Source of the DNA: Patescibacteria group bacterium UBA5147
Lineage (GTDB): Bacteria; Patescibacteriota; Saccharimonadia; UBA4664
Reading direction: 5' to 3'
NCBI GenBank assembly: GCA_002415345.1
Contig: DHXV01000003.1
Location: 24,213 to 88,212, forward strand
DNA length: 64,000 bases
The notes under the pieces were generated by a model, which saw only the letters and a program-made list of their open reading frames with translations, was not told where the DNA came from and made no database searches. This document shows positions 5,673 to 62,897 of the stretch, one piece after another. How positions within the stretch are numbered: position 1 is the first letter of the stretch; each line of letters opens with the position of its first letter. The position numbers and the translations under genes were made by a program.

Positions 5673-6131
5673 ATGAAATGTTTCGACTGCGATTACATTG
5701 ACTCGAAAGTAGTTGAATCACGTGACGTTGACGACAGCGCCACCATCCGCCGCCGCCGGCAATGTCTACGCTGCGGGGCACGCTTCACAACTTACGAGCG
5801 GATGGAAATGCCGACGATAGCCGTGATCAAAAAGGACAACCGGCGCGAGTTGTTCAGCCGCAGCAAAGTCGCCTCAGGTATTTATCGCGCAGTTGAAAAA
5901 CGACCGATTGCGATTGCCCAAATCGAGGATCTCATCTCGCAGATCGAGCGCGAAGTCCGAGCCTGCGGTGAGGCCGAGATCGCCAGCACAAAAGTGGGCG
6001 AGATGGTGATGAAGAAGTTAGAAGTCCTGGACGACGTGGCATACGTGCGCTTCGCCAGCGTTTACCGGAGCTTCACCGATGTTGCCAGCTTTGAGGCTGA
6101 ACTTAAGCGCCTCAAGACGCGCATCTTATAA
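5673..6131 (+). CDS. nrdR: transcriptional repressor NrdR (Zn-ribbon + ATP-cone)
   Basis: MKCFDCDY...CLRCGARFTTYER zinc ribbon followed by an ATP-cone. The tracked ORF starts 33 nt earlier inside the palindrome; MKC with RBS AAGGAGGG upstream is the likely start. Confidence 0.85.
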   Translation: MKCFDCDYIDSKVVESRDVDDSATIRRRRQCLRCGARFTTYERMEMPTIAVIKKDNRRELFSRSKVASGIYRAVEKRPIAIAQIEDLISQIEREVRACGEAEIASTKVGEMVMKKLEVLDDVAYVRFASVYRSFTDVASFEAELKRLKTRIL

Positions 6132-9531: not shown

Positions 9532-9791
9532 TGTTCGTGACCGTAATATCGATATTTACCGACCTGTTCGTCCTGATTTATACCGTTCTCTTGATTGCCA
9601 GGGTTGTAGGCAGCTATATTGCAAAATCGGGAGGGCAGTTTTATCGAGCCCTAGTCAGTATTACCGAGCCGGTCATAGCACCGGTACGAAAAGTATTGCC
9701 CCAGACGCCCGGGTTGGATCTCGCGCCCTTGGTCACCTACGTTGTACTGAGAGGCATTCAATACCTCGTCCACAGCTTGCTTGGAGCATAG
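9531..9791 (+). CDS. YggT family membrane protein
   Basis: 86 aa, two TM segments. MFVTVISIFTDLFVLIYTVLLIARVV ... PLVTYVVL pattern typical of YggT/Ycf19. ATG overlaps upstream stop (TGATG). Confidence 0.6.
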   Translation: MFVTVISIFTDLFVLIYTVLLIARVVGSYIAKSGGQFYRALVSITEPVIAPVRKVLPQTPGLDLAPLVTYVVLRGIQYLVHSLLGA

Positions 9792-9799
9792 ATTAGGTT

Positions 9800-10006
9800 C
9801 ATAATAGCGTTACAACTTGGCAATGCATTTCGATTTATCGAATGAGCGGTTATCAACCGCAAAGCAGCGGAAAGAAATCGTGATCAGCGCGAAATTAGAC
9901 TCCGACGTTGACGGCTCACGATAACAGCCGATAACTAAGTGTCCATCTGGAAAGCAGGGTGGTACCGCCGGGAATCCGGTCCCTGCATCAACGGATGGTT
10001 TTTTGT
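9800..10006 (+). promoter_or_regulatory. T-box leader (tRNA-sensing riboswitch) upstream of ileS, probable Ile specifier
   Basis: Conserved T-box sequence AGGGTGGTACCGCC at 9956-9969 containing the UGGU tRNA-acceptor-binding bulge. ATC codons followed by purine in the putative specifier region (gaaATCgtgATCAg, 9877-9886). Downstream hairpin plus U-run (catcaacggatggTTTTTT) precedes the ileS RBS. Confidence 0.65.
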
Positions 10007-10023
10007 ATAAAAAAGGAATTATC

Positions 10024-12915
10024 GTGAAGAAAGCTCCAACCGCCAATTTCCCCGAATTTGAAGCCGAGATGCTGCGCGTCTGGGCCGATGAAGACACGTT
10101 TAAGAATAGCTTGGATAACCGTTCCGACGCCGAGCGATTCAGCTTCTATGACGGTCCGCCGTTTGCCAACGGCCAGCCCCACTTTGGCCACACACTGGTC
10201 ACCAGCATCAAGGATGCCCTCGGACGCTACAAAACCATGCAGGGATATTACGTGGAGCGCCGCAACGGTTGGGACTGCCATGGTTTGCCGGTCGAGTTTG
10301 CCGTCGAAAAAGAGTTCGGTGTCAGCGGTAAGAAACAGATTTTAGAACTGGGGCTGCAAAAATTCAACGATGCCTGCCGCGCCAGCGTCTTTAAATACAA
10401 AGGCGAATGGGAGGAGTTCTTCCGGCGCGCCGGCCGCTGGACCGACACCGCCAACGCCTATGCCACCATCGACCGCGACTACACCGAGAGCGTGTGGTGG
10501 ATGCTGGGGCAGGTGAATGACAAGGGGCTGCTGTATCGTGGCTATAAGAGTATGCCGTACTGCCCTCGGTGCGAAACGCCGCTGTCAAACTTCGAGGTGA
10601 ACGAGGGCTACAAGGACGATGTTCCGGACCCAAGCCTGTACGTTAAATTCAAACTGGTGGGTGAGGATGCCAGCTTGCTGGGATGGACCACTACCCCGTG
10701 GAGCCTGCCAGGCAACGCCGCTGTGGCCGTCAATCCCAAGGCAAAATATGTCTATGCCAAGCTGACCGGCGATGACGGCACCAGCGAGGTACTGGTATTG
10801 GCGAAAGCCCGGCTCGAATCGCTCAAAGCTGAATACGAAATTATTTCCGAAGTCAGCGCCGGGGAACTTGTCGGCAAATCCTATGAGCCACTGTTCAAAC
10901 AACCCTCGGCCGCACTGACCGCCGATGAGAAGAAGAATCTTTTCAAGGTTTGGGCTACCGATATCGTTTCGGTTGAAGACGGTTCCGGCGTGCTGCATGT
11001 GGCGCCCGCCTTCGGCGAGGACGACCTTAATATGTCCGTGGAATACGGCATTCCTGTCCTCACCACGGTCAAACCGAACGGCCATATTACCGATGACGTC
11101 GAGCTCGAAGACGTGCGCGACAAGTTCTTTAAGAGTGCCGACCGCCTAATCACCCAGCACCTGACGGAGCAGGGCAAAGTGTTTCTGGCCGAGACCTTCA
11201 CCCACACCTATCCGTTCTGTTACCGCTGCGAAACCCCGCTGCTGTACTACGCCATATCGACCTGGTTCGTTAAGGTCTCGGCCGTCCGTGACCAAATGCT
11301 TGCCACTGCCGAACAAATCACCTGGAGCCCGGCGAACATCAAGTCCGGCCGCTTTGGTAAATGGCTCGAGGGCGCCAGGGATTGGGCCATCAGCCGCAGC
11401 CGTTACTGGGGTGCGCCGATGCCGATCTGGGTGAACGTGGACGATGCCGATGATTTCATTGTAGTTTCAAGCCTTGATGAGCTGGTGAAGCTGGCCGGTC
11501 TGGAAGGAAAGCCCGAGGACCTGCACCGCCCAGGTATCGACAACGTCGTCATTACCAAAGACGGCAAAACTTACAAGCGCATCGACGACGTCTTTGACTG
11601 CTGGTTCGAGAGCGGATCTATGCCAGTGGCGCAGCAGCACTACCCATTTGAAAACAAGGACGTGTTTGAAACCAGTTTTCCGGCCGACTATATCGGTGAG
11701 GGTCTGGACCAGACCCGCCTCTGGTTCTACGTCCAGCATGTCCTGTCGACGATCGTCTTTAACCGCCCGGCGTATAAAAACGTCCTCGTAAACGGCATGG
11801 TCATGGCTGCTGACGGAGAAAAGTTGAGCAAGCGACTGAAGAATTATCCTCCGGTTGAAGACGTCTTCGCCAACGAGGGCGCCGATACTTTACGGTTCTA
11901 TTTACTGGGCAACGACCAGGCCGTAGGTGCCGATTATATGCGCTTTTCCCGCGACGCCATGCGGGATATCCAACGTAACGTGTTCGGGACCCTGTGGAAC
12001 ACCTACAGTTTCCTGAGTATGTATGCCGAAATCGATAAATGGCAGCCTACCAAAACCTTGCAACGGCCGACCAGCGACAATGTCCTGGACCAGTGGCTGC
12101 TGGCCCGCCTTGATGTAACGGTCGCCGAAGTCACCCGCCAGGCTGACGACTACAAATTGGCAGCCGCCCTGCGCCCTTTGCGTGCACTGGTGGAAGACCT
12201 GAGCAACTGGTACGTCCGCCGCAGCCGGCGAAGGTTCTGGAAGAGCGAAGACGACGGCGATAAGGCCGCAGCATATGCCACTTTGCATTATGCGCTCTGC
12301 CGGATCGCCCAGATTTTAGCTCCCTGGAGCCCGTTCATCGCCGAAAAACTGTGGCGCGGCCTAACCGAAGGTATGGACGAGCCGGCCAGCGTGCATTTGA
12401 GCGACTGGCCAAAAGCGGACAAAACGGACCAACCTTTGCTTGATGAAATGGAGCAGGCCCGAGCCTACATCAATGCCGCACTCTCGCAGCGGGCTGAGGC
12501 CTGCATCAAGGTACGGCAACCACTGTCGCGCCTGGAAGTGCCGCAACTAGGTGATGCTTATAAGTTCATCATCGCCGATGAAGTCAATGTCAAGGAAGTC
12601 GTCTGGAACGAGGGCGGCGAAGTCAAGCTGACTACTACTTTGACTCCCGAGCTTAAGGCCGAAGGCCTGATGCGCGACATCGTCCGCCAGGTACAATCGA
12701 CACGCAAGAGCGCGGGGCTGAAAGTTGATGACCGCATTGTTCTGACGCTCCAAACCGAGGCCGGTAACGACCTGGCGCTGGCAATTCAGGCCCACAAAGA
12801 CACCATCATGGCTGAGACCTTGGCGACCGATCTCAAGATGACCGACGCTGATCCGGACCTGATTCCGGTCAAAGTCAACGGCATGGAACTGACGATCGAC
12901 GTGGTAAAAGCTTAG
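10024..12915 (+). CDS. ileS: isoleucyl-tRNA synthetase (type 2, eukaryote-like)
   Basis: HIGH motif PHFGH, KMSKS variant KLSKRL, WAISRSRYWG. GTG start with AAGGA RBS 7 nt upstream. The tracked TTG 10003 start is inside the T-box terminator. Confidence 0.9.
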   Translation: MKKAPTANFPEFEAEMLRVWADEDTFKNSLDNRSDAERFSFYDGPPFANGQPHFGHTLVTSIKDALGRYKTMQGYYVERRNGWDCHGLPVEFAVEKEFGVSGKKQILELGLQKFNDACRASVFKYKGEWEEFFRRAGRWTDTANAYATIDRDYTESVWWMLGQVNDKGLLYRGYKSMPYCPRCETPLSNFEVNEGYKDDVPDPSLYVKFKLVGEDASLLGWTTTPWSLPGNAAVAVNPKAKYVYAKLTGDDGTSEVLVLAKARLESLKAEYEIISEVSAGELVGKSYEPLFKQPSAALTADEKKNLFKVWATDIVSVEDGSGVLHVAPAFGEDDLNMSVEYGIPVLTTVKPNGHITDDVELEDVRDKFFKSADRLITQHLTEQGKVFLAETFTHTYPFCYRCETPLLYYAISTWFVKVSAVRDQMLATAEQITWSPANIKSGRFGKWLEGARDWAISRSRYWGAPMPIWVNVDDADDFIVVSSLDELVKLAGLEGKPEDLHRPGIDNVVITKDGKTYKRIDDVFDCWFESGSMPVAQQHYPFENKDVFETSFPADYIGEGLDQTRLWFYVQHVLSTIVFNRPAYKNVLVNGMVMAADGEKLSKRLKNYPPVEDVFANEGADTLRFYLLGNDQAVGADYMRFSRDAMRDIQRNVFGTLWNTYSFLSMYAEIDKWQPTKTLQRPTSDNVLDQWLLARLDVTVAEVTRQADDYKLAAALRPLRALVEDLSNWYVRRSRRRFWKSEDDGDKAAAYATLHYALCRIAQILAPWSPFIAEKLWRGLTEGMDEPASVHLSDWPKADKTDQPLLDEMEQARAYINAALSQRAEACIKVRQPLSRLEVPQLGDAYKFIIADEVNVKEVVWNEGGEVKLTTTLTPELKAEGLMRDIVRQVQSTRKSAGLKVDDRIVLTLQTEAGNDLALAIQAHKDTIMAETLATDLKMTDADPDLIPVKVNGMELTIDVVKA

Positions 12916-23507: not shown

Positions 23508-24446
23508 GTGGCGCTCAGACGCCTGCTAATGGGACTGCTTCTAGCCGGGGGCTTGAGCATTCTGATGGCCCTGCCGGTGCGGGCAGCGAGCCAGGGGTTC
23601 ATTATTTCGCCCGCATTTCAAAGCGTCATCCTGACGGCGGGCCAGACTCACACGCAGTATGCGCTGCAGCTGACCAATTCGACACCCACGGATCAGAATT
23701 TCCGCTTGTCCGCGGTGGATTTCGGCTCGCTTGATGAAAGCGGTGGCGTAGCCTTCCTAGGAATCCCAACCAGCGAACTTGAACATCGGTATGGCTTGGC
23801 AGCCTGGATGAAACTGGGCACCAACACGGTATTTGTAGCGGCGGCGAAGAGCGTCCAGGTAATCGTGACGATTGATAACCGTGCGTCGCTGGCTCCAGGG
23901 GGCCATTATGGGGCGATTTTAGCGACGGCCGTCACCGATACCGGTAAGGATACTGCGGGTGATCCAAGGGTTAACTTGCGCCAGGTATTATCATCCCTGG
24001 TGCTGTTAACCAAAGACGGGGGGATTAACGCTGAGCTCAAACTGACCAGCCAAAGCGTTAACCGGTCCGGGCTGCGGATGCCTAGTGCTACTTCCCAACG
24101 GTTCCAAAATACCGGCAATGTGCATTTGGTACCGCGGGGCACGGTGGTAATAAAAGATCCGGCCGGACGTGTCGTGTCACGCGGAGCGCTCAATGACGGA
24201 TCCGGCACTATCTTGCCCGAGAGTTTTCGCCGCTATGACACACCTCTAATGAGCATCGGCGCCCCCTGGCTACCCGGCCGGTATCAGGCCGTCACGACCT
24301 ATCGCTACGATGGTACCGAACAAACCAAGACGTTGGCGACTAGTTTCTGGTACGTAGGACAAGGAATTGTTTGGATTGCCGCGGTGGCGGTAGTTGGTTG
24401 TGTCGGTTGGCTGGGCTGGTTTTTTTGGCGGCGCAGGCGGAGCTAA
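23508..24446 (+). CDS. two-Ig-domain cell-surface protein with C-terminal TM anchor, paralog 2 of 3
   Basis: NTGNVHLVPRG, GTILPESFRRYD. C-terminus SFWYVGQG + TM + RRRRS. Confidence 0.6.
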   Translation: MALRRLLMGLLLAGGLSILMALPVRAASQGFIISPAFQSVILTAGQTHTQYALQLTNSTPTDQNFRLSAVDFGSLDESGGVAFLGIPTSELEHRYGLAAWMKLGTNTVFVAAAKSVQVIVTIDNRASLAPGGHYGAILATAVTDTGKDTAGDPRVNLRQVLSSLVLLTKDGGINAELKLTSQSVNRSGLRMPSATSQRFQNTGNVHLVPRGTVVIKDPAGRVVSRGALNDGSGTILPESFRRYDTPLMSIGAPWLPGRYQAVTTYRYDGTEQTKTLATSFWYVGQGIVWIAAVAVVGCVGWLGWFFWRRRRS

Positions 24447-54192: not shown

Positions 54193-55446
54193 ATGAGACT
54201 TTCCAAGCTGTACACCAAGACCCGACGCGACGCCCCAAAAGACGAGACCGCCAAGAACGCCCAGCTACTGATTAAAGCCGGCTACATCCATAAGGACGCG
54301 GCTGGCGTTTACCTGTGGTTGCCGTTGGGCCGTATCGTCCTCAATAAAATCATTCAGATAATCCGGGACGAAATGGACGCCCTCGGCTATCAGGAAGTCA
54401 TGATGTCGAGCCTGCAGCGCAAAGAGTTGTGGGAAACCACCGACCGCTGGGACGACGACAAGGTGGATATTTGGTTCAAGACCAAGTACAAGAACGGCAA
54501 GGAAGCCGGGCTGGCGTGGAGCCACGAAGAGCAGATGGTGGACATGATGCGGCAATTCATTTCCAGCTACAAGGATCTTCCGGTGGGCGTGTACCAGTTC
54601 CAAAACAAGTTACGTAATGAGATACGCGCAAAAAGCGGTATTATGCGGACCCGTGAATTCATCATGAAGGATTTGTACTCGTTTTGCCGCGACCAAGAGC
54701 AGCACGATAGCTTTTATAACGACGTCAAGGAGGCCTATCTGCGGATTTTCGAGCGGGTCGGACTGGGTGATTCGACATACTTTACTTTTGCTTCCGGCGG
54801 TCCATTTGCGGAGTTCTCGCACGAATTCCAAACCGTGACCGAGGCCGGTGAGGATATTATTTACGTTGATAAGTCTAAGCGCATCGCCATCAACCAGGAA
54901 GTGCTACGGGATGACGTTCTTAACAATCTTGGTGTTAAGCGTGAGGATCTTGAGGAAGTTAAGGCTTCTGAGGTGGGGAACATCTTCAGCTTCGGAACCA
55001 GCAAGAGCGAACCGTTCGGTCTGAAATTTACCGACGAAGACGGCAAGGAGAAGTTTGTCACCATGGGGTCCTACGGGATCGGTCCCGCCCGCGTCATGGG
55101 CGTCATCGTGGAGCATTTTGCCGATGAACGGGGCCTGGTCTGGCCCAAGGGAATCGCGCCGGCCGATGTCCATATCGTGCGCATCGGTGATACCCCTGAG
55201 GTGGTGGCTGCGGCCGACAAGCTCTACGCCGATCTCCAAGCGGCCGGCAAGCAGGTCATTTACGACGACCGCAACGAGCGCGCCGGCCAAATGTTCGCGG
55301 ACGCCGACCTGATTGGCGTGCCGCACCGCGTGACCGTCTCGGCTAAAACCATCGAACAAGGGAGTGTGGAATACAAGGCTCGCACCGGATCCGACAGCAA
55401 ACTTGTCAAGACCGATGAGGCTGTCAAGACCTTGACAAAGGCCTAA
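54193..55446 (+). CDS. proS: prolyl-tRNA synthetase (compact form without insertion/editing domain)
   Basis: MRLSKLYTKTRRDAPKDETAKNAQLLIKAGYI N-terminus, class II motifs, C-terminal anticodon-binding domain. 417 aa. Confidence 0.8.
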   Translation: MRLSKLYTKTRRDAPKDETAKNAQLLIKAGYIHKDAAGVYLWLPLGRIVLNKIIQIIRDEMDALGYQEVMMSSLQRKELWETTDRWDDDKVDIWFKTKYKNGKEAGLAWSHEEQMVDMMRQFISSYKDLPVGVYQFQNKLRNEIRAKSGIMRTREFIMKDLYSFCRDQEQHDSFYNDVKEAYLRIFERVGLGDSTYFTFASGGPFAEFSHEFQTVTEAGEDIIYVDKSKRIAINQEVLRDDVLNNLGVKREDLEEVKASEVGNIFSFGTSKSEPFGLKFTDEDGKEKFVTMGSYGIGPARVMGVIVEHFADERGLVWPKGIAPADVHIVRIGDTPEVVAAADKLYADLQAAGKQVIYDDRNERAGQMFADADLIGVPHRVTVSAKTIEQGSVEYKARTGSDSKLVKTDEAVKTLTKA

Positions 55447-61204: not shown

Positions 61205-61228
61205 CTGAGCGTCGTTCAAAATGGAAAA

Positions 61229-61254
61229 TGACCGCCCATCCGGGCGGTCATTTG
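61229..61254 (+). terminator. rho-independent terminator after greA
   Basis: tgaccgccc-atc-cgggcggtca followed by TTTGAG. Confidence 0.6.
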
Positions 61255-61323
61255 AGTTGGGAGCTCCATTCAATTTTAGTTACCATTCGCTCCGAGGTGA
61301 ATTTTCGGGTAAAATAGGCCTCA

Positions 61324-62897
61324 TGAAACCCCAAAGCAACTATTGGCTCGATGTCGCGGTACGCGAGATCCTTGAGAAATATCCGGAAGGCGAAATCGTC
61401 GTCTCAAGCGGCATCTCGCCCTCAGCCTCTTACCATATCGGCCACTTTCGCGAGATCATGACGGCTGACGCCCTTACCTGGGGTATTAAACAGGCTGGAC
61501 GCAGCGCGCGGCACCTCCACGTCGTCGATAACTTCGACCCCCTGCGCAAACGCTACCATTTTTTACCCGAAAGCTTCGAACAGTACGTCGGTTGGCCGAT
61601 ATCGCTGGTGCCAGATCCGATTGACGCCTGTCGCGACGAGCACAAGACCTATGCCGAGCACTTCTACCGCGAGTTCGAAGGCTACGCCCGCCAAATGGGC
61701 ATCGTGCCCGATGAGGTAGTGCGCTCGTACGAGCAGCTTTATGCCAGCGGCAAGATGGCCTCAAGTATCGAGAAGGCCGTTGAGAATGTCGGGCGAATCA
61801 AGACGATAATGAAGGAAGTCTCCAAGCGCGACCTGCCTGACGGGTGGCTTCCGTTGCAGCTGATGGGACCGAACAAGAGTTTTGCTGAACTTACCTACAA
61901 GAGTATCGATACTAAAGCTAAACGAATTATCGGCATTTCCACCGACGGCATCGAACATAGCCTCGATTACACGGCCGGGGAAGTCAAGATGTACTGGCGT
62001 TTGGATTGGCCGGCCCGCTGGCAGGTACTCGGTGTGAAAGTAGAACCTTTCAGCATCCAGGAACACGGAGCCGCGGGTGGTTCATACGAGACTGGCGTGA
62101 GGTTAGATCGCGAGATTTTCGATTATGAACCTCCTATTCCGGGGGTACGTTACGGCAACATCCATATGCAGGGTGATACCAAGAAGATGAGCTCATCGTC
62201 AGGCAATCTCATCACTCCCGAGCAGGCCTTGCAGATTATGCCGCCGGAAGTACTGCGCTACTTTATTGCTCGCAGTCGGCCCGAGCGGACGCTGTTTTGG
62301 GAGTCCAATCAGGGGCTGATGAAGTTACTGGAGGAATTTGCCCAGGTCGGACAGGCGGTGGACGCGGGGGAGCCGCATGAATTCGCCGAAGCTTACGCTT
62401 TTGCTATGGCTTCCAAGGTGCACAACACTATATCCAGCGTGCCCTTTAATCATCTGATCCAAGTGTGGCAAGCCTCTCGCGGCGACCAGGTCCGTGCACT
62501 CGAAGTTCTTGAACGCACCGATTTCTCCGAGGCCGTTAAGAACGAGTCCGATGTCTTGGAGCGGGAATTCGTCTATGTTGCCAAATGGTTGGAGCTTTAC
62601 GCACCGGAAACCGTGAAATTCAGTGTTCAGGAAGTTTTGCCCCAGGTTGAATTAAGCGAACAGCAGCGTGATTTTCTTGGGAAGCTGGTCGACGCTGTCG
62701 CCGAGAGTGAGTTGGACGGCCAGGGGATGCATCAGGCAATCTATGCCGCAATCGATGCGGCCGGTCTCAAACCAGGAGAAGCCTTTAAGGCATTGTACCG
62801 GGTAATCCTCGGCAAAGACTCTGGCCCCAAGGCCGGATGGTTCCTGGCCTCTCTGGAAAGAGGCTGGCTGGTTGAACGTCTGCACTTGACAAAATAG
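61324..62897 (+). CDS. lysK: class I (archaeal-type) lysyl-tRNA synthetase
   Basis: SGISPSASYHIGHFREI (HIGH region of class I LysRS), KMSSSSGN (KMSKS variant). ATG 61324; the tracked ORF start lies inside the greA terminator. Confidence 0.8.

Follow-up and report, generated by a model that had tools for sequence, protein, structure and literature searches.

The stretch of DNA analysed here (hereafter designated the window; 64,000 nucleotides (nt), positions 24,213 to 88,212 of contig DHXV01000003.1 from Patescibacteria group bacterium UBA5147) contains, upstream of the isoleucyl-transfer RNA (tRNA) synthetase gene ileS, a leader that is almost certainly a T-box specific for tRNA-Ile. On balance, the modelled folds favour a control of ileS by this tRNA-sensing leader through transcription attenuation with a switch of non-canonical design. 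The downstream gene was identified by the TIGR00392 equivalog profile (866 bits; cut-off, 621), and its product (IleRS) carries the Pfam domains tRNA-synt_1, Anticodon_1, and DUF5915; the next-best profile matches were MupA/MupB, and the enzyme is a eukaryote-like type 2 IleRS. Its closest relatives were found in metagenome-assembled genomes of Candidatus Saccharibacteria/Saccharimonadia (59–89% identity), and the best 120 protein homologues were all of the Saccharibacteria type. Judged from these sequences, the organism with the T-box is a Saccharimonadia bacterium of the Candidate Phyla Radiation (CPR), and the leader type is conserved across Saccharibacteria. A preliminary description of the locus, made from its letters, had named the gene as ileS, suspected a CPR-like genome, and read in the leader a T-box core with a UGGU bulge and, in a candidate specifier loop, ATC codons followed by a purine as a probable Ile specifier, all of which agree with the present results. 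The elements of the locus are collected in Table 1.

Table 1 Positions of the elements of the ileS locus in the window (SD, Shine–Dalgarno sequence; ORF, open reading frame; bp, base pairs; aa, amino acids; K-turn, kink-turn).
Element	Position	Strand	Detail
T-box leader	9812–10004	+	upstream of ileS (GTG start 10024)
Intergenic region	9797–10023		flanked by the stop codon (9794–9796) of a small unannotated ORF and by the 963-aa gene
ileS with SD	10013–12915	+	SD AAGGA 10013–10017; GTG 10024; stop at 12915; 963 aa
Probable promoter	9777–9805	+	−35-like TTGCTT 9777–9782; 17-nt spacer; −10 CATAAT 9800–9805; predicted from sequence
Stem I, short, Class III type	9824–9866	+	basal helix UGC 9824–9826 / GCA 9864–9866
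Stem I, inserted hairpin	9829–9842	+	lineage-specific
Stem I, K-turn-like element	9843–9845 / 9861–9863	+	UGA opposite AA(A)
Stem I, specifier helix	9846–9850 / 9856–9860	+	apical loop U-AUC-A 9851–9855
Specifier codon AUC (Ile)	9852–9854	+	followed by conserved purine A9855
Stem II	9868–9904	+	lower helix CGGA 9868–9871 / UCCG 9901–9904; upper helix 9878–9882 / 9888–9892
Stem II, S-turn-like purine strands	9872–9877; 9892–9900	+	AAGAAA; AAAUUAGAC
Stem IIA	9906–9908 / 9918–9920	+	CGU / ACG
IIB pseudoknot	9912–9916 / 9926–9930	+	CGGCU / AGCCG
Stem III module	9937–9953	+	purine string AAGUG 9937–9941; AA 9952–9953
Vestigial Stem III	9942–9944 / 9949–9951	+	UCC / GGA, loop AUCU; 3 bp
Helix A1	9954–9959 / 9981–9986	+	GCAGGG / CCCUGC
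T-box core	9956–9969	+	AGGGTGGTACCGCC
T-box bulge	9960–9966	+	UGGUACC; UGGU complementary to tRNA 3'-ACCA
Helix A2	9967–9971 / 9976–9980	+	GCCGG / CCGGU; base wobble G9967-U9980
Outer helix, 5' arm	9943–9949	+	CCAUCUG; where the loop and 3' arm of Stem III lie
Outer helix, 3' arm	9992–9998	+	CGGAUGG; pairs with 9943–9949
U-tract	9999–10004	+	UUUUUU directly after the outer helix; intrinsic-terminator-like unit, terminator function predicted

Among the 4227 families of Rfam, the T-box family RF00230 was the only one to give an E-value of 1 or lower anywhere in the 64 kilobases (kb). Under the sensitive setting, it aligned end to end with positions 9801–9987 at 27.7 bits, with E-values of 2e-4 in a search of 401 nt and of 0.033 in the search of the 64 kb against all families; the T-box core was aligned excellently and with high posterior probability, while most of Stem I was deleted (51 nt instead of 89). 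No family reached its gathering threshold in the 64 kb, that of RF00230 being 93 bits, and the same score was reached by none of 16 relatives. The preliminary description had let its reading stand or fall with an RF00230 hit above threshold, and the score obtained formally speaks against it. We regard this test as invalid for the present leader, because the RNA has a short Stem I of the Class III type, which is poorly modelled by RF00230 with its long Stem I. A covariance model built here from 16 leaders (hereafter designated R1) matched the window once, at 9842–9986, with 138 bits. Among the 45 loci first fetched (numbered with L below), R1 matched 26 Saccharibacteria ileS loci (65–138 bits), always upstream of the gene and on its strand, and one contig pair fetched later (L046/L047) also carries the leader. 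R1 gave no match in L021, L024, or L043 and nothing upstream of about 15 ileS genes from outside Saccharibacteria (proteobacterial, archaeal, chlamydial, planctomycete, myxococcal, and Gemmatimonadaceae). No second T-box was detected in the window with R1 and Rfam, in line with the earlier remark that none precedes proS or the lysine synthetase gene (the class I lysS).

The alignment used for counting covariation was made with MAFFT, without fitting to a structure. In the proposed structure, 88% of the cells paired, as compared with 68% in shuffles (none of 500 reached the observed value) and 32–41% when the partners were slid by 1–3 columns, and 25 of the 31 pairs changed on both sides. Because the element is conserved with such covariation in at least 26 related loci, the T-box is far beyond chance.

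The sequence features of the decoding domain support its assignment to Class III, the actinobacterial ileS type. Of the eight ATC triplets in the leader, the conserved one is that in the apical loop of the hairpin at 9846–9860, where AUC-A was invariant (24 of 24 relatives scored by pattern; 26 leaders listed) and matches the amino acid of ileS. The loop, U-AUC-A closed by U9850-A9856 in the window, is a 7-nt C-U-AUC-A-A where the closing pair is C/A. The specifier helix (4–5 bp) paired in 100% of cells, with compensatory variants GCGG/CCGC, GUAG/CUAC, GUGG/CCAC, and GCAG/CUGC, and the basal helix of Stem I covaried likewise (UGC/GCA, AGC/GCU, AGU/GCU, UAC/GUA, and UCC/GGA). Between them, most relatives carry a variable hairpin at the K-turn bulge, making a three-way junction, while L016, L005, L007, and L011 have a plain GUU-UGA...GA K-turn without an insert and L015 and L041 have GUU-AGUA. 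This junction is reminiscent of a 'k-junction'. Stem I terminates in the specifier loop of 5–7 nt, and the elbow-binding distal interdigitated T-loop motif is absent. In Stem II, the lower helix paired in 98% of cells, with all four pairs changing on both sides, and the upper helix in 83%; the motifs GAAGAA and UAGUAGAA/AUUAGAC are conserved, and RF00230 aligned this stretch to its own Stem II. S-turn-like strands are present and conserved, consistent with a putative S-turn. Moreover, the IIB arms covaried in at least six variants (CGGCU/AGCCG, CAACU/AGUUG, CUCGA/UCGAG, AUUACU/AGUAAU, CGACUA/UAGUCG, and CUGC/GCAG). The lower pairing counts of IIA/B (58–73%) and those of the upper Stem II understate the support, because MAFFT misaligns lineages in these parts. 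Among T-boxes, a Stem II followed by IIA/B is lacking only in those for glycine.

In the discriminator domain, A1 and A2 paired in 100% of cells, and 8–9 of their 10 pairs changed on both sides. The basal pair of A2 is a G-U wobble in 13 of 16 aligned leaders and U-A in one subgroup (L008, L011, L014, L015, L019, L023, L032, and L041); steric sensing of the aminoacyl group has been ascribed primarily to this wobble. In L035 (at about 2928–2940), the bulge is UGGCACC instead of UGGUACC, and a tRNA-Ile with G73 rather than A73 is therefore predicted there. Large insertions in A2, like those of translational T-boxes, were seen in L022 (2866–2952, including an extended hairpin of about 70 nt) and L039 (2863–2903). 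Stem III is 8–9 bp long in 11 relatives (L008, L009, L011, L014, L015, L019, L022, L023, L032, L038, and L041) and absent in L005, L007, and L035; flanks of the RRRxG...AA type are present in the window.

The hairpin and U-run that the preliminary description had placed before the ribosome-binding site of ileS correspond to the helix 9943–9949/9992–9998 and the six U residues that follow it. The same description had proposed folding the leader to confirm Stem I with its specifier loop, which the covariation supports, and mutually exclusive terminator and antiterminator helices, which are absent; the terminator-like helix encloses the T-box element instead. When the RNA was folded up to the 3' strand of A1, Stem III and A1/A2 were formed, and when about 45 nt more were included, the outer helix was formed with A1/A2 unchanged in 26 of 27 leaders. 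The latter fold was more stable than that of the truncated RNA by 10–23 kcal/mol, the A1/A2 element being folded in both predicted states. No complement to the 3' strands of A2 and A1 was found downstream of them, the gap from the 3' strand of A1 to the outer-helix arm being only 5–8 nt.

The outer helix paired in 79% of cells, and 7 of its 9 pairs changed on both sides in the unfitted alignment, with 11 distinct anchor sequences and partners changing with them. For single leaders, an ungapped 9-mer register test had too little power (chance mean, about 6.4 of 9), and duplex-energy z-scores and the pair count took its place. Relative to shuffled partners, the duplex energies gave z = −1.7 to −7.4; the non-cognate partners that scored best were in every case members of the same sequence class. 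In the 11 lineages with a Stem III of 8–9 bp, the downstream strand is approximately a copy of the Stem III 5' arm, and the outer helix pairs the whole Stem III 3' arm together with 3–6 loop nt, being strictly exclusive with Stem III. This geometry is the layout expected for a toehold-mediated strand displacement, in which the loop nt would serve as the toehold.

Of the 8 nt that follow the matched strand, at least five are U in 85% of 26 leaders, as compared with 5.5% of background 8-mers, giving the unit the form of an intrinsic terminator, that is, a helix of 7–15 bp followed by a U-tract. A simple terminator scan called nothing at the site 9943–10004, because the 'loop' of the outer helix is itself nested structure. 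In the window, the U-tract ends 8 nt 5' of the SD and 19 nt 5' of GTG 10024. The distance from leader to ileS varies from 32 to 793 nt and amounts to 97–793 nt in L039, L018, L020, L032, L004, and L007. In three of these loci, unrelated genes lie between ileS and an intact leader with its U-tract, namely an AAA_33 kinase-like gene in L004 (2469–2999), a GDSL hydrolase gene in L007 (2242–2838), and a cupin gene in L032 (2651–3004), which would be co-regulated by tRNA-Ile charging. Since the leader distances are variable, genes intervene, and the hairpin involving the SD (see below) is unconserved, transcription attenuation is favoured as the conserved output. That the leader acts through a terminator is quite likely.

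The mechanism by which the terminator would be controlled is presumably a strand exchange at Stem III, for which we put the chances at a little better than even. In this scheme, the decoding half (the AUC-A loop of Stem I, Stem II with its putative S-turn, and IIA/B) would bind the GAU anticodon of tRNA-Ile, Stem II acting as a buttress, and in the discriminator half (AAGUG, Stem III, and A1/UGGUACC/A2) the UGGU would pair with the uncharged 3'-ACCA. The OFF state would be the thermodynamic default. Without uncharged tRNA, the strand 9992–9998 would invade Stem III at 9943–9949, and the outer helix would close around the folded A1/A2, causing intrinsic termination at the following six U residues. 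In the ON state, uncharged tRNA-Ile would dock Stem III and its purine flanks on the tRNA-bulge duplex and thereby shield them from invasion, so that the outer helix could not close before the polymerase leaves the U-tract, and read-through into ileS would follow. With charged tRNA or none, the Stem III module would be undocked, invaded, and terminated. The best reading of the two modelled folds is accordingly a genetic decision taken without unfolding of A1/A2, in which tRNA binding, termination, and the protection of Stem III by docking are the steps that we infer. The sensing of aminoacylation involves Stem III and the RRRxG/AA purines as integral parts (PMC7583486). For the M. tuberculosis ileS T-box, single-molecule experiments revealed an undocking of the linker and a movement of Stem III off the antisequestrator when the bound tRNA is charged (PMC12647780).

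Several points weigh against this interpretation. The outer helix of the window, taken alone, has just 7 bp and z = −1.9. The weakest point is Stem III, which is reduced to 3 bp in the subgroup of the window and is missing from L005, L007, and L035; leaders with a weak or missing Stem III would have to be protected, speculatively, by the docked purine string. For fast capture of tRNA, transcriptional T-boxes as a rule require the elbow motif of a long Stem I (PMC7583486), and the present leader is without an elbow-binding motif. No tRNA gene was found in the window, with ARAGORN, or in 29 fetched loci, and the fit to a GAU anticodon and A73 is a prediction. The contrast with the platform of the actinobacterial ileS T-boxes draws on published descriptions. 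Finally, the U-tract is poor in L009 and L010 (UAUUUG). In these two loci (at about 2921–2960), the outer helix is very strong (11–15 bp; about −25 kcal/mol), and the sequence of its 3' arm, AAGAGAGG, is similar to that of the true SD (AGAGGAG), which follows after about 20 nt; this lineage may have a different output, and its members may be exceptions to transcription attenuation.

Of the other explanations, the one that survives best, although unlikely, is that the outer helix is a structural clamp present in both states, which replaces a weak Stem III, and that the U-rich stretch is an AT-rich spacer; regulation would then proceed by another route (RNA stability or Rho), or the leader would bind tRNA constitutively. 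The outer helix does leave A1, the bulge, and A2 intact, so that tRNA could in principle bind, and L005, L007, and L035 have no Stem III with which the helix could compete. However, the strong enrichment of U-tracts precisely at the 3' end of the helix (the 85% and 5.5% given above) is at odds with a spacer, and in leaders with a genuine Stem III the two are strictly exclusive, the helix reaching into the Stem III loop. Moreover, in a clamp, a duplex of 7–15 bp would have RRRxG at one end and AA at the other, whereas solved discriminators have both purine elements beside the base of Stem III (PMC7583486).

Somewhat less probable again is a translational switch in the style of the actinobacterial Class III T-boxes, in which 9994–10004 would sequester the SD and start region 10013–10023 and tRNA binding would free the SD by keeping the former strand in the outer helix. 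Most Class III T-boxes act on translation (PMC10482949), and the minimum free energy (MFE) structure of the window indeed holds an 11-bp hairpin of 9994–10004 with 10013–10023 (GAUGGUUUUUU / AAGGAAUUAUC), which gave −8.4 kcal/mol and z = −2.4 when folded alone. In 12 relatives whose SD is close by, however, z ranged from −1.4 to +0.9, and the hairpin is not conserved. The large leader distances in the six loci named above, sometimes with a gene between, likewise speak against it, and the feature that is conserved is the U-tract immediately after the helix. SD sequestration was therefore dropped as a mechanism of the family, the hairpin being predicted in the window only, where it could be either an extra translational layer of this genome or a product of chance. 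A perfect 9-bp complement between 9916–9924 and 10020–10028 (UCACGAUAA / UUAUCGUGA; the 3' side of Stem IIA with the linker and the start-codon region of ileS) appeared in one full-length MFE structure only and was unseen in relatives; it is probably due to chance.

All characterised transcriptional T-boxes work by canonical attenuation (PMC7583486), in which the 3' strands of A1/A2 together with downstream sequence form a terminator competing with the antiterminator, but such a mechanism is highly improbable here in view of the gap of 5–8 nt, the absence of any complement downstream of the A1/A2 3' strands, and the intact A1/A2 in the MFE structures of all 26 full-length 3' domains. The sub-threshold RF00230 score would also suit a chance resemblance or a decayed, functionless relic, a notion rendered negligible by the occurrence of the element upstream of ileS in at least 26 divergent genomes (IleRS 59–89% identical) with compensatory changes in every helix.

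Comparison with known T-boxes places the leader nearest to Class III in its decoding half. Class III is characterized by a short Stem I without the elbow motif, a specifier placed in an apical loop of five or six nt, and a requirement for Stem II (Suddala et al., PMC10482949), the references cited there including the ileS T-boxes of Nocardia farcinica and M. tuberculosis, the 'ultrashort Stem I' of Sherwood 2015, and PDB 6UFM. Common to the Class III ileS T-boxes and the window are the downstream ileS, the AUC specifier in a small apical loop, a short K-turn Stem I lacking the elbow double T-loop, a Stem II with an S-turn (putative in the window) followed by IIA/B, and the succession of purine string, A1, UGGN-ACC, and A2. 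The two differ in output, as the known members replace the antisequestrator by an SD-sequestering helix, whereas the Saccharibacteria leaders close an outer helix with a U-tract around an intact A1/A2. They differ also in host (Actinobacteria versus Saccharibacteria of the CPR) and in the extra hairpin at the K-turn bulge of most Saccharibacteria members. With Class I T-boxes of the B. subtilis tyrS type, the leader shares the T-box sequence, Stem II, IIA/B, the flanks of Stem III, an output of hairpin and U-tract, and a terminator fold more stable than the tRNA-free ON fold. In contrast, the long Stem I with AG bulge, distal loop, and elbow contact has no counterpart in the window leader, the specifier of Class I lies in an internal and not a terminal loop, and the Class I terminator uses the 3' strands of A1/A2 where that of the window would use a strand of Stem III. 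The T-boxes characterised so far reuse the 3' strands of A1/A2 as the 5' strand of their terminator or sequestrator (PMC7583486). Generic strand-displacement riboswitch platforms resemble the leader in that mutually exclusive helices share one strand and the later competitor is longer, with a toehold in the loop; here, unlike there, the shared strand lies in the accessory sensor helix, Stem III, and the ligand-binding helices would never unfold.

The expression platform thus appears unlike those of the T-boxes described in the literature examined. Whether the leaders constitute an unrecognised Saccharibacteria class of T-boxes, combining a Class III decoding domain with a terminator governed by strand exchange at Stem III while A1/A2 never unfold, is in our estimate evenly poised. 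If so, the aminoacylation signal would be read purely through docking and undocking of the Stem III module, and kinetic (transcriptional) control would be possible without an elbow contact of Stem I. The wiring would then be a natural experiment in which docking of Stem III, and not the stability of the antiterminator, is the regulated step, which fits the single-molecule work (PMC12647780), and the combination of an elbow-independent Stem I with apparently transcriptional control would go against the generalisation that the elbow is needed (PMC7583486).

T-boxes are known mainly from Firmicutes, Actinobacteria, Chloroflexi, and Deinococcus-Thermus, the rare others having been ascribed to horizontal transfer (PMC2494555; TBDB supplement, PMC7778990). 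TBDB and its supplement name no phylum of the Saccharibacteria or CPR, and the Class II ileS model was run there on Actinobacteria only (PMC7778990). No relevant report of T-boxes in Saccharibacteria, TM7, CPR, or Patescibacteria came out of our literature searches (Sherwood 2015 being outside their scope), nor did one of a natural riboswitch in CPR. A 2024 perspective describes regulation in CPR/Patescibacteria as virtually unknown and brings up riboswitches solely as an engineering tool for the future (PMC11665869). The present leaders extend T-box regulation to the CPR, where it would have been either inherited within Terrabacteria or gained from the actinobacterial hosts of these epibionts. 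Standard annotation misses the whole family, whose scores lie far below the Rfam threshold; its members can be recovered with R1. As bacteria of the Saccharibacteria type depend on host cells for building blocks (PMC11665869), a T-box at ileS would directly sense the isoleucine supply.

The contig pair fetched later (leader at 5765–5959 of L046 and 1551–1745 of L047; protein P0098) carries a leader of the Saccharibacteria type (79 bits) next to an IleRS labelled 'Candidatus Limnocylindria' (Chloroflexota), with an IS200/IS605-type Y1 transposase gene nearby, and is explained either by mis-binning of the contig or by a transfer. The promoter of L046 is textbook-like (TTGACT-17-TGgTATAAT), and relatives have a −10-like hexamer at the equivalent place (TATAAT, CATAAT, TATAGT, or TATACT), often TGn-extended. 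For the window, a transcription start is predicted near A9812, within a conserved uACAA; a simple promoter scan did not call its promoter, because the −35 element matches at only 3 of 6 positions. Elsewhere in the window, ProRS (54193–55446; 417 aa) matched the bacterial profile in two stretches and is apparently without the insertion domain, and LysRS (lysS, 61221–62897) is a class I enzyme of the archaeal type.

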